From Escherichia coli (lineage in GTDB: Bacteria; Pseudomonadota; Gammaproteobacteria; Enterobacterales; Enterobacteriaceae): a stretch of DNA of 64,000 nt. The notes under the pieces are model-generated. The model had not been told where the DNA came from. It did no database searches and saw only the letters and a program-made list of their open reading frames with translations. The DNA lies in assembly GCF_044324785.1 (NCBI RefSeq), contig NZ_CP172127.1; one strand, given 5' to 3'. The position numbers and the translations under genes were made by a program. Of this stretch, positions 27,119-57,303 are shown piece by piece; positions within the stretch are counted from its first letter, which is position 1, and every line of letters begins with the position of its first letter.

Positions 27119-27194
27119 TGGCTCCTCTGACTGGACTCGAACCAGTGACATACGGATTAACAGTCCGCCGTTCTACCGACTGAACTACAGAGGA
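27119..27194 (-). tRNA. asnV: tRNA-Asn (GUU)
   Basis: Reverse complement is the 76-nt E. coli tRNA-Asn, UCCUCUGUAGUUCAGUCGGUAGAACGGCGGACUGUUAAUCCGUAUGUCACUGGUUCGAGUCCAGUCAGAGGAGCCA. Confidence 0.97.
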
Positions 27195-27520
27195 ATCGTG
27201 TGAACGGGGCGCATATTAATGGCAGTGCATGGTGATGTCAAAGGGTGAAATGCATTTTTTTGTTTGTTTGCTGTCAATTTCAACAAAGTGGTGAGCTTTC
27301 AATCTTATTGGGTAATGAACCATCGTGGTGCATACCCTCCTTTTATAGGGCAGGGGAACGCGACAGCTGATTAAAGGAGCCAATGACGAATCTATCATAA
27401 TCTCTTATTTGACAGTTGGTTAGCTTGTACATCAACGCCAAAATAAAACTGGCAAGCATCTTGCAATCTGGTTGTAAGTAATGGCGGCACTTGGGCCGAT
27501 TCTTAAAAACCGGAGGCAAC

Positions 27521-28438
27521 ATGAACTTCAGACGCCTGAAATACTTCGTAAAAATTGTAGATATTGGTAGCCTGACCCAGGCTGCTGAAGTATTGCATAT
27601 CGCACAACCAGCGCTCAGTCAGCAGGTTGCCACACTGGAAGGTGAGTTAAATCAACAACTTTTGATTCGCACAAAACGGGGCGTTACGCCAACTGACGCC
27701 GGAAAAATTCTCTATACCCATGCGCGGGCCATTTTACGTCAGTGTGAGCAGGCCCAACTGGCGGTGCATAACGTTGGTCAGGCATTATCGGGGCAAGTCT
27801 CGATTGGCTTTGCGCCAGGAACCGCTGCGTCATCCATCACCATGCCCTTATTACAGGCGGTTCGCGCTGAATTTCCGGAGGTTGTTATCTATCTTCATGA
27901 AAATAGCGGTGCAGTGCTTAACGAAAAACTGATAAATCACCAACTCGATATGGCGGTGATTTATGAGCATTCCCCTGTGGCTGGTGTATCCAGTCAAGCT
28001 TTACTGAAAGAAGATCTTTTTCTGGTAGGAACTCAAGATTGCCCGGGGCAAAGCGTTGATGTTAATGCTATTGCGCAAATGAACCTCTTTCTCCCAAGTG
28101 ATTACAGTGCTATTAGACTTCGTGTTGATGAGGCTTTTTCCCTACGGCGACTCACGGCAAAAGTCATTGGTGAAATTGAGTCTATTGCCACGCTTACCGC
28201 AGCGATTGCCAGCGGCATGGGCGTTGCAGTATTACCCGAATCGGCCGCGCGTTCGTTATGTGGCGCAGTAAATGGTTGGATGTCACGCATTACCACTCCT
28301 TCCATGAGTCTCTCTTTGTCATTAAATTTACCCGCCAGAGCGAACTTATCGCCACAGGCACAGGCAGTGAAAGAGTTGTTAATGTCAGTGATGAGTTCTC
28401 CAGTGATGGAAAAAAGGCAGTGGCAATTGGTGAGCTAA
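27521..28438 (+). CDS. nac: Nitrogen assimilation control protein (LysR family)
   Basis: MNFRRLKYFVKIVDIGSLTQAAEVLHIAQPALSQQV.. Nac (305 aa); ATG at 27521 preceded by GGAGG. Confidence 0.95.
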   Translation: MNFRRLKYFVKIVDIGSLTQAAEVLHIAQPALSQQVATLEGELNQQLLIRTKRGVTPTDAGKILYTHARAILRQCEQAQLAVHNVGQALSGQVSIGFAPGTAASSITMPLLQAVRAEFPEVVIYLHENSGAVLNEKLINHQLDMAVIYEHSPVAGVSSQALLKEDLFLVGTQDCPGQSVDVNAIAQMNLFLPSDYSAIRLRVDEAFSLRRLTAKVIGEIESIATLTAAIASGMGVAVLPESAARSLCGAVNGWMSRITTPSMSLSLSLNLPARANLSPQAQAVKELLMSVMSSPVMEKRQWQLVS

Positions 28439-28539
28439 GCATTATATCGGGATGGAATAAGATGCGGGTTTTTATTATTTGTTATGCCGGGCATTAGACT
28501 TTAACAATAACGGGAAATCTGAACTGCCCGGAGTTTACC

Positions 28540-29490
28540 GTGAATTTCCAACAACTAAAGATAATCCGCGAGGCTGCACGTCAGGATTACAACCTGACAG
28601 AGGTTGCGAATATGCTTTTTACCTCACAGTCAGGCGTCAGCCGTCATATTCGGGAACTGGAGGATGAACTTGGCATCGAAATATTTGTTCGACGAGGTAA
28701 GCGACTGCTGGGCATGACTGAACCGGGCAAAGCATTACTGGTCATTGCAGAACGTATTCTGAATGAAGCCAGTAATGTTCGTCGGCTTGCAGACCTGTTT
28801 ACCAACGATACGTCTGGCGTTCTCACTATTGCAACGACGCATACTCAGGCACGTTATAGCCTGCCAGAGGTTATTAAAGCTTTTCGCGAACTTTTCCCGG
28901 AGGTTCGGCTCGAGCTAATCCAGGGGACGCCACAGGAAATTGCGATGTTGTTGCAAAATGGTGAAGCTGATATTGGTATCGCCAGCGAGCGTTTGAGTAA
29001 TGACCCGCAGCTCGTCGCCTTCCCGTGGTTTCGTTGGCACCATAGTTTGCTTGTTCCACTCGATCATCCCTTGACGCAAATTACACCATTGACGCTGGAA
29101 TCAATAGCGAAGTGGCCATTAATCACTTACCGACAGGGGATTACGGGGCGCTCACGCATTGATGACGCATTTGCCCGCAAAGGTTTGCTGGCAGATATTG
29201 TATTAAGTGCGCAGGATTCTGATGTCATTAAAACCTATGTTGCTCTTGGGCTGGGGATCGGATTAGTTGCCGAACAATCCAGCAGCGAACAAGAGGAAGA
29301 GAATTTAATCCGCCTGGATACGCGGCATCTTTTTGATGCTAATACTGTCTGGTTGGGACTGAAGAGAGGACAACTTCAGCGTAACTATGTCTGGCGCTTT
29401 CTGGAACTTTGTAATGCAGGACTGTCAGTTGAGGATATCAAGCAGCAGGTGATGGAAAACAGTGAAGAGGAAATTGATTATCAGATATAG
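28540..29490 (+). CDS. cbl: HTH-type transcriptional regulator Cbl (LysR family)
   Basis: 316 aa, GTG start, MNFQQLKIIREAARQDYNLTEVANMLFTSQSGVSRHIRELE.. Confidence 0.95.
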   Translation: MNFQQLKIIREAARQDYNLTEVANMLFTSQSGVSRHIRELEDELGIEIFVRRGKRLLGMTEPGKALLVIAERILNEASNVRRLADLFTNDTSGVLTIATTHTQARYSLPEVIKAFRELFPEVRLELIQGTPQEIAMLLQNGEADIGIASERLSNDPQLVAFPWFRWHHSLLVPLDHPLTQITPLTLESIAKWPLITYRQGITGRSRIDDAFARKGLLADIVLSAQDSDVIKTYVALGLGIGLVAEQSSSEQEEENLIRLDTRHLFDANTVWLGLKRGQLQRNYVWRFLELCNAGLSVEDIKQQVMENSEEEIDYQI

Positions 29491-56915: not shown

Positions 56916-57112
56916 GCTTACCTTCCCTGAACGAGCTAACATAAATGCGCCCTTTCTAGCACAGCGAAAAAAAGTAAATCCTGATAGCAATATGATTGAA
57001 AATTAATAACTTTTCGTTAAGCAGTTTTGAGTGTGAGTTGCAAGAGGGGAGACTACTGAATTACTCAAGTTTTATAATCGAGGGGAAAATGGTGATGGCG
57101 TTCATAGCAAAA

Positions 57113-57140
57113 CGCCCTCAACCATAAAGGTTGAGGGCGC
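57113..57140 (-). terminator. Terminator downstream of asnT
   Basis: Hairpin gccctcaaccataaaggttgagggc with a T run on the minus strand. Confidence 0.5.
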
Positions 57141-57227
57141 TTAAGATGTCAAAAACCCGCTATCCGTTAAAAAGCAATGCTCAACTAAGATCAGTGACAT
57201 TGCGCTAAAAAGCGAATTTTTAGAATT

Positions 57228-57303
57228 TGGCTCCTCTGACTGGACTCGAACCAGTGACATACGGATTAACAGTCCGCCGTTCTACCGACTGAACTACAGA
57301 GGA
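57228..57303 (-). tRNA. asnT: tRNA-Asn (GUU)
   Basis: Fourth identical 76-nt tRNA-Asn copy, between yeeJ and mtfA. Confidence 0.97.

Follow-up and report, generated by a model that had tools for sequence, protein, structure and literature searches.

One integrase-bearing Rhs island among four identical tRNA-Asn genes of an Escherichia coli chromosome

Which of several identical tRNA genes that stand close together are occupied by integrated DNA, and how did the occupant arrive? This question is raised by a stretch of 64,000 nucleotides from Escherichia coli (contig NZ_CP172127.1, assembly GCF_044324785.1; hereafter the window), which contains the tRNA-Asn genes asnV, asnU, asnW and asnT. That the asn-tRNA cluster is a multi-copy landing site is already known and well documented (PMC8209727, PMC7545054). 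In the window, asnV, asnU and asnT are empty, while asnW is followed by a genomic island of 10,544 bp with a P4-type integrase gene and an Rhs gene. We consider it very likely that the cluster presents identical copies of one bacterial attachment site (attB), the other three being empty, and that the island entered asnW by site-specific recombination through its P4-type integrase.

One occupied and three empty tRNA-Asn genes

All four tRNA-Asn(GTT) genes have 76 nt and are located within 30,185 bp, as found by ARAGORN and in agreement with the Rfam tRNA matches. The 76 nt and the 5 nt that follow them (AAATT) are the same in all copies. The flanks, aligned over 100 bp, are dissimilar with the exception of a promoter-like TTGACA-N16/17-TAATAT or TAAGAT sequence 5' of every copy. 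According to the annotation of K-12 MG1655 and of strain N3, which is the closest complete genome (99.9% identity over window positions 27000-47000), the window represents the E. coli chromosome in reverse K-12 orientation, with the order his - sbcB - cobUST - ldtA - asnV - nac - cbl - asnU - yeeO - asnW - yeeN - amn - shiA - yeeJ - asnT - mtfA - serU. As both annotations give the same flanking genes, the names and the order which a sequence-only reading of the window had assigned to the four asn genes are right, and so is its count of four identical copies in about 30 kb.

Five occurrences of the 22-nt tRNA 3' end are found in the window, compared to 0.00 expected from 100 shuffles. The fifth copy (41950-41971) is partial, with 3 mismatches that are all at its 5' side. 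The exact direct repeat has 20 bp, CCAGTCAGAGGAGCCAAATT, and its two copies, one at asnW and one at the right border of the island (attR), are 10,544 bp apart (Table 1); the att-core sequence of the four tRNA-Asn genes and of attR is CCAGTCAGAGGAGCCAA. K-12 serves as a reference in which all four asn sites are empty. Its asnW site, ...GAGGAGCCAAATT directly followed by TTAGTTTTGAGACATC, corresponds to window position 31431 joined to position 41976. Because the sequence directly after K-12 asnW (junction ...GCCAAATT to TTAGTTTTGAGACATC...) is that of the window from 41976 onward, the insertion is precise, and deletion of 31432-41975 restores the empty K-12 site base for base. The asnW tRNA is intact at the island junction, with its full 76 nt and the sequence of the other three copies. 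The native hairpins and T-run terminator of asnW, which match the sequence directly after asnW in K-12, are now found 3' of the right repeat, and RNA folding did not reveal a good terminator between asnW and the island integrase gene (z -1.1). The GC content of the island is a mosaic (0.34-0.64). The repeats and the precise K-12 empty site bear out two earlier proposals, namely that only asnW holds an island and that the 20-bp 3' end common to the four tRNAs is the attachment site.

It might be argued that the right repeat copy is a chance match, or the rest of a decayed duplicated tRNA, and that the 10.5 kb are ordinary variable chromosome. The one point in favour is that the repeat is short. 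The number of matches expected from shuffled sequences, the exact deletion junction in K-12, an integrase gene that adjoins the tRNA, and the fact that strain ATCC 8739 has this right arm and core at another tRNA all argue against it, and we give this explanation practically no credence.

The other three copies were said to be unoccupied. Since asnV, asnU and asnT are collinear with K-12 over the tRNA, the hairpin and the neighbouring genes, this can be maintained: mean column identity is 99%, 96% and 92%, respectively, where the values for asnU and asnT include unaligned query ends. There is no adjoining integrase in the list of open reading frames (ORFs) and no further att copy in the window according to the att search. 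Comparison of the tRNA flanks with other genomes had been proposed as a check, and it gave matches to K-12 at these three sites and a precise insertion at asnW; foreign DNA directly 3' of asnV, asnU or asnT, which would have spoken against empty sites, was found neither in the K-12 alignments nor in the ORF list. The three empty sites, being identical, thus serve as internal controls for the island boundaries, exactly as had been suggested.

One detail has to be corrected. Terminators directly after the tRNA were claimed for all three empty genes. A hairpin with T-run is indeed found 6-8 nt past the CCA end at asnV and asnU, but the hairpin of asnT is located about 85 nt downstream, with the same spacing in K-12. 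A simple terminator scan missed the terminators of asnU and asnT and the native one of asnW, and folding of the downstream RNA was used instead.

The occupied copy has a counterpart at a non-Asn gene. The tRNA-Ser(CGA) gene serU (58295-58384, plus strand; ARAGORN) is directly followed by a prophage (58385-64000) that continues past the end of the window and is without counterpart at this position in N3 and K-12, so that the tRNA beside the empty asnT site is itself occupied. The prophage codes for an integrase (58470-59498, minus strand), a DUF4224 protein (59498-59713, minus strand), a Sipho_Gp157 protein (60105-60674, minus strand) and a 737-aa ORF without family match.

Table 1. Coordinates of the tRNA-Asn genes, their signals and the asnW island in the window.
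Feature	Position	Strand	Evidence
asnV intrinsic terminator, hairpin and T-run 6 nt past CCA	27085..27112	-	terminator scan; fold -17.3 kcal/mol, z -5.15
asnV tRNA-Asn(GTT), unoccupied attB	27119..27194	-	ARAGORN, Rfam; ldtA and nac flanks as in K-12
asnV promoter-like site TTGACA-17-TAATAT	27213..27241	-	consensus scan only
asnU intrinsic terminator, hairpin and T-run	29492..29520	-	fold -19.5 kcal/mol, z -5.01
asnU tRNA-Asn(GTT), unoccupied attB	29528..29603	-	ARAGORN, Rfam; cbl and yeeO flanks, K-12-collinear
asnU promoter-like site TTGACA-16-TAAGAT	29620..29647	-	consensus scan only
asnW promoter-like site TTGACA-17-TAATAT	31305..31333	+	consensus scan only
asnW tRNA-Asn(GTT), occupied; intact tRNA at left junction (attL)	31352..31427	+	ARAGORN, Rfam, alignment
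Left copy of 20-bp direct repeat CCAGTCAGAGGAGCCAAATT (att core)	31412..31431	+	repeat search
Inserted genomic island, 10,544 bp, right repeat copy included	31432..41975	+	K-12 empty site
P4-type tyrosine integrase pseudogene, 1-bp deletion after 32022	31589..32850	+	Pfam; 19KM1831 ortholog
AT-rich spacer, no convincing gene	32851..34200		composition, ORFs, repeats
Truncated second integrase, Phage_int_SAM_2 and Integrase_1, different family	34388..34795	-	Pfam
EFASI RNA motif, upstream of second integrase	34851..34978	-	Rfam RF02957, 100.8 bits (gathering 51.2)
Small winged helix-turn-helix (HTH) protein (HTH_35, SfsB/Nlp-like)	35713..35901	-	Pfam, NCBIfam
Hypothetical 153-aa protein	35898..36359	-	no family match (Pfam, NCBIfam)
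C4-type antisense RNA motif	36413..36501	-	Rfam RF01695, 62.2 bits (gathering 45)
Rhs core protein, 1393 aa	36881..41062	+	Pfam DUF6531, 7 RHS repeats, RHS
Candidate immunity protein, tetratricopeptide repeat (TPR)/Sel1-like, 200 aa, AT-rich	41065..41667	+	sub-threshold TPR matches; TPR annotation in N3
Right copy of 20-bp direct repeat (attR core)	41956..41975	+	repeat search
Downstream hairpins and terminator native to asnW, displaced by 10.5 kb	41979..42068	+	fold -34.7 kcal/mol, z -5.97
asnT terminator-like hairpin, about 85 nt past CCA	57110..57142	-	fold of 57080-57227
asnT tRNA-Asn(GTT), unoccupied attB	57228..57303	-	ARAGORN, Rfam; yeeJ and mtfA flanks, K-12-collinear
asnT promoter-like site TTGACA-17-TAATAT	57322..57350	-	consensus scan only

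Integrase of the island and use of the asn sites in other genomes

The island integrase has the domains Arm-DNA-bind_3 (PF13356), Phage_int_M (PF22022) and Phage_integrase (PF00589), which are split over two frames. Compared to the intact ortholog from strain 19KM1831, it shows 4 substitutions and a 1-bp deletion. The deletion, at 32022-32023 (GGATTT-ACTG versus GGATTTCACTG in 19KM1831), is the sole frame-breaking change, and therefore the loss of the integrase looks recent. The ortholog from 19KM1831 shows 71% protein sequence identity to the integrases of both the high-pathogenicity island (HPI) and the pks island, and the spacer of about 160 bp between tRNA and integrase gene is homologous in all three islands. 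Kinship at this level marks the island, by its sequence, as a third lineage of the asn-tRNA-specific integrase family, beside HPI and pks.

The left arm of the island contains one GGTGGTCA motif (31539-31547), within a block that is conserved with the left ends of pks and HPI, and the right arm contains two copies in the form GGTGGTC (41877-41884, 41888-41895). These motifs are possible arm-type sites of the integrase, but their statistical support is weak (6 shared 8-mers versus 1.6 expected, with a shuffle maximum of 10), so that this is to be taken as a lead only.

Related islands are found at other asn copies in other strains. In ATCC 8739, a homologous Rhs island of 16.8 kb with the same core is located at asnV, where attR (...CCAGTCAGAGGAGCCAAATT followed by CAAA) leads into the native asnV flank. 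Its first integrase is a pseudogene and its second is intact, and its Rhs core, with 88% nucleotide sequence identity, is combined with a different Rhs tip and an NTF2-fold immunity protein. At asnT, strain 1916D6 carries a 95.7%-identical integrase pseudogene as a remnant, while in KFu022 this integrase is found together with a portion of the island interior behind another mobile element. Islands of other types use the same genes: strain 9 has pks at asnW, FAHZZU7007 has HPI at asnV, and the literature names asnW, asnU and asnV as sites of pks, and asnT and asnV as sites of HPI (PMC8209727, PMC7545054), with pks at asnU in two strains of sequence type ST95 (Auvray et al., PMC8209727). The prediction that the three other tRNAs are potential integration sites is thus substantiated by the island family itself for asnV and, as remnants, for asnT, and by the published pks insertions for asnU.

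To survey how frequent the empty state is, each empty site, made up of the tRNA with 300 bp on either side, was used as a query for the complete genomes of E. coli (5,426), and genomes with the contiguous empty form were counted. This form was found in 5180 genomes for asnU (95%), in 4981 for asnW (92%), in 4664 for asnV (86%) and in 2674 for asnT (49%); what remains in each case gives only a maximum for occupancy, because an inversion between oppositely oriented tRNA copies also breaks junctions. An example is strain 9 (NZ_CP048304.1, locus 5368-9676). Beside its pks island, the segment yeeO-asnU-cbl-nac has the opposite orientation to that in K-12 and in the window, and yeeN adjoins a tRNA carrying the nac flank, which agrees with the inversion reported in PMC8209727. 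As this asnW/asnV inversion breaks two junctions without two insertions, we rejected the use of the junction counts as occupancy rates. A close copy of the island integrase is located at asnW in about 59 genomes. This number results from 364 yeeO-asnW-integrase junctions less 305 with 80-90% identity, which were taken as pks-type because both sampled matches were. At least 80% of window positions 27000-47000 is covered in 43 genomes, about 1% of the complete genomes. Genome matches that span 30 kb were considered as signs of rearrangement and dismissed, since 19KM1831 is collinear and the extra pieces are only the repeated tRNA.

The survey also bears on the suggestion that yeeJ, cbl-nac and ldtA-cob, which are found 3' of asnT, asnU and asnV, are themselves ancient fixed islands that lack integrases. 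The region as a whole is known for its lability; Jackson et al. call their position 8 (yodB-yeeJ) "an evolutionary labile region", and the length of yeeJ differs among strains. Yet the window contains no extra copies of the att core and no integrase remnants beside asnT, asnU or asnV, terminators directly follow asnV and asnU, and the same junctions are present at asnV and asnU in the great majority of genomes and at asnT in about half. We thus consider ancient islands at these sites very unlikely.

Under the favoured scenario of site-specific integration, each asn gene would be a separately promoted copy that offers one and the same attB to islands with P4-type integrases. A circular element would have used the 20-bp core to recombine with the asnW 3' end, either in this strain or in an ancestor. 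Integration would have restored a complete tRNA gene on the left side, with a partial copy of 20 bp remaining on the right, and would have displaced the native terminator by 10.5 kb. As a consequence of this displacement, the asnW promoter may read into the integrase gene; the same read-through from the tRNA promoter is reported for pks (PMC8209727). The integrase would later have lost one base, which would leave the island fixed unless a related integrase acts in trans. The identical tRNA copies may, in addition, permit homologous inversions and deletions.

A competing account is that the island reached this strain within a large segment by homologous recombination from an E. coli with an asnW island, or by vertical descent, so that the att repeats would go back to an earlier integration event in another host. 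It is consistent with this account that about 43 complete genomes, from a variety of hosts, carry the island at the same site with 98.5-99.9% identity and that the integrase is defective in N3 as well as in the window strain. Intraspecies recombination as a way for HPI to spread within E. coli is the subject of PMC2606025. Such a history does not, however, contradict a first entry by site-specific integration. The integrase of 19KM1831 is intact, and the presence of one island family at three different asn sites calls for independent integrations or for rearrangements. We regard arrival by recombination or descent as a real possibility, though one that we favour less than its opposite.

Several points weigh against site-specific integration of the island as it now stands. 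With its integrase frameshifted, the island cannot move alone and present-day mobility is unlikely; a family search of the island (Pfam, NCBIfam) did not reveal a recognisable excisionase; excision and a circular form are beyond what sequence can demonstrate; and the junction survey, as said, only bounds the occupancy of the sites from above. The content of the island is also mosaic, with the remnant of a second integrase and with EFASI and C4 RNA motifs, so that the integrated unit may differ from the present 10.5-kb island. The small HTH protein was considered as an excisionase but discarded, as this has no family support and NCBIfam places the protein as SfsB/Nlp-like.

Cargo of the island and neighbouring loci

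The largest gene of the island codes for an Rhs protein with the characteristics of a polymorphic toxin: a repeat shell, a core end of the PxxxxDPxGL type (DPLGL, visible in the translation as YADPLGL), a variable C-terminal tip (about 40700-41062) and a small ORF downstream. GC content falls to 0.34 past the Rhs core. A toxin role of the Rhs protein is probable from this architecture, and the product of the downstream ORF is a candidate immunity protein by its position after the tip. There are no genes for a type VI secretion system within the window.

The tip did not match any entry in Pfam, NCBIfam or PDB sequence searches. Its family is small and uncharacterised; only about 20 homologues can be detected. 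Among 19 sequences, an H-G pair is nearly invariant, and C and G of an S-C-N-T-G motif are invariant. The AlphaFold model of the tip is confident (pLDDT 93.7), and its best fold matches, which are weak (E 7e-3, TM 0.42-0.51), are clan CD cysteine protease domains of MARTX, TcdA and TcdB, as well as legumains and caspases. That the tip is a cysteine protease toxin is a reasonable guess from the model, not a result.

Between integrase and Rhs gene, the AT-rich non-coding spacer contains two imperfect direct repeats of 131 nt (33052-33182 and 33280-33410) with 73% identity, the first of which holds an internal inverted repeat of 42 nt. The truncated second integrase is annotated as frameshifted in N3 and is intact in ATCC 8739. 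The C4-type motif precedes the 153-aa ORF and the HTH gene. The EFASI and C4 motifs suggest that remnants of a second mobile or phage-like module persist in the island.

Three further loci of the window differ from K-12 or N3. The gene yeeJ (48300-56990, minus strand), which codes for an inverse autotransporter adhesin, has a longest ORF of 2896 aa, compared to 7020 bp or about 2340 codons in K-12. Its internal segments are 83-93% identical to one another, which indicates an expansion of Ig-like repeats. The site of the K-12 prophage CP4-44, between tmaR and cobU, is empty (window about 22900-23560). Transfer of the annotation from N3, which is collinear, puts a small hypothetical gene and a EutP/PduV pseudogene fragment in this interval. 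The genes yeeE and yeeD (16153-17672) are present as in K-12 but missing from the otherwise near-identical N3.

Comparison with pks, HPI and known Rhs loci

The asn cluster is a textbook hot spot for pathogenicity islands, and there is nothing new about its four sites. The empty ones mark where further islands, for example HPI or pks, could land in this strain. What is mildly new is an Rhs locus that is carried on an island whose integrase is from the HPI/pks family and is aimed at tRNA-Asn genes. Such an integrase-borne island is a concrete route for the transfer of Rhs toxin genes between strains.

The pks island, which codes for colibactin and is found in phylogroup B2 at asnW and also at asnU or asnV, shares its target genes with the Rhs island. 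It also has the same layout of tRNA, a spacer of about 160 bp that is homologous to the one found here, P4-type integrase, cargo and partial tRNA repeat (PMC8209727). Nucleotide sequence identity of the integrase genes is about 81%. The cargo of pks is the 54-kb clb cluster, whereas the island described here has 10.5 kb, with an Rhs toxin module and a frameshifted integrase. The left ends also differ: that of the Rhs island continues with AAATT like the native flank, unlike AATTT in pks, and this is why its repeat extends to 20 bp. HPI, the yersiniabactin island at asnT or asnV, has the same tRNA-Asn target and an integrase of the same family (about 73% nucleotide sequence identity), and it occupies different asn copies in different strains (PMC7545054). 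It is unlike the Rhs island in cargo and size and is usually without right repeat in E. coli (PMC8209727), whereas the Rhs island keeps both repeats.

Jackson et al. (2009) described Rhs loci at "position 7" (yeeO-cobT) and "position 8" (yodB-yeeJ), citing ATCC 8739. These are clade I-type Rhs genes from the same chromosomal neighbourhood. The loci were defined by their flanking genes, with tRNA genes unmentioned, while the Rhs gene of the window is inside an integrase-bearing, repeat-bounded island at asnW and differs in its toxin tip and immunity gene. A link of Rhs spread to site-specific integration was said not to be known by these authors, and our text searches of the literature did not turn up a direct description linking Rhs with asn tRNA genes or integrases. 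We tentatively propose, as a view that may well have to be revised, that the Rhs loci of positions 7 and 8 represent one mobile island family. This would be the third asn-tRNA-specific P4-type lineage beside HPI and pks, would move toxin/immunity pairs among the four asn sites, and would carry in the present case an undescribed cysteine protease toxin resembling clan CD. If this is true, the spread of Rhs genes is linked to site-specific integration at the same tRNA-Asn genes that HPI and pks use.

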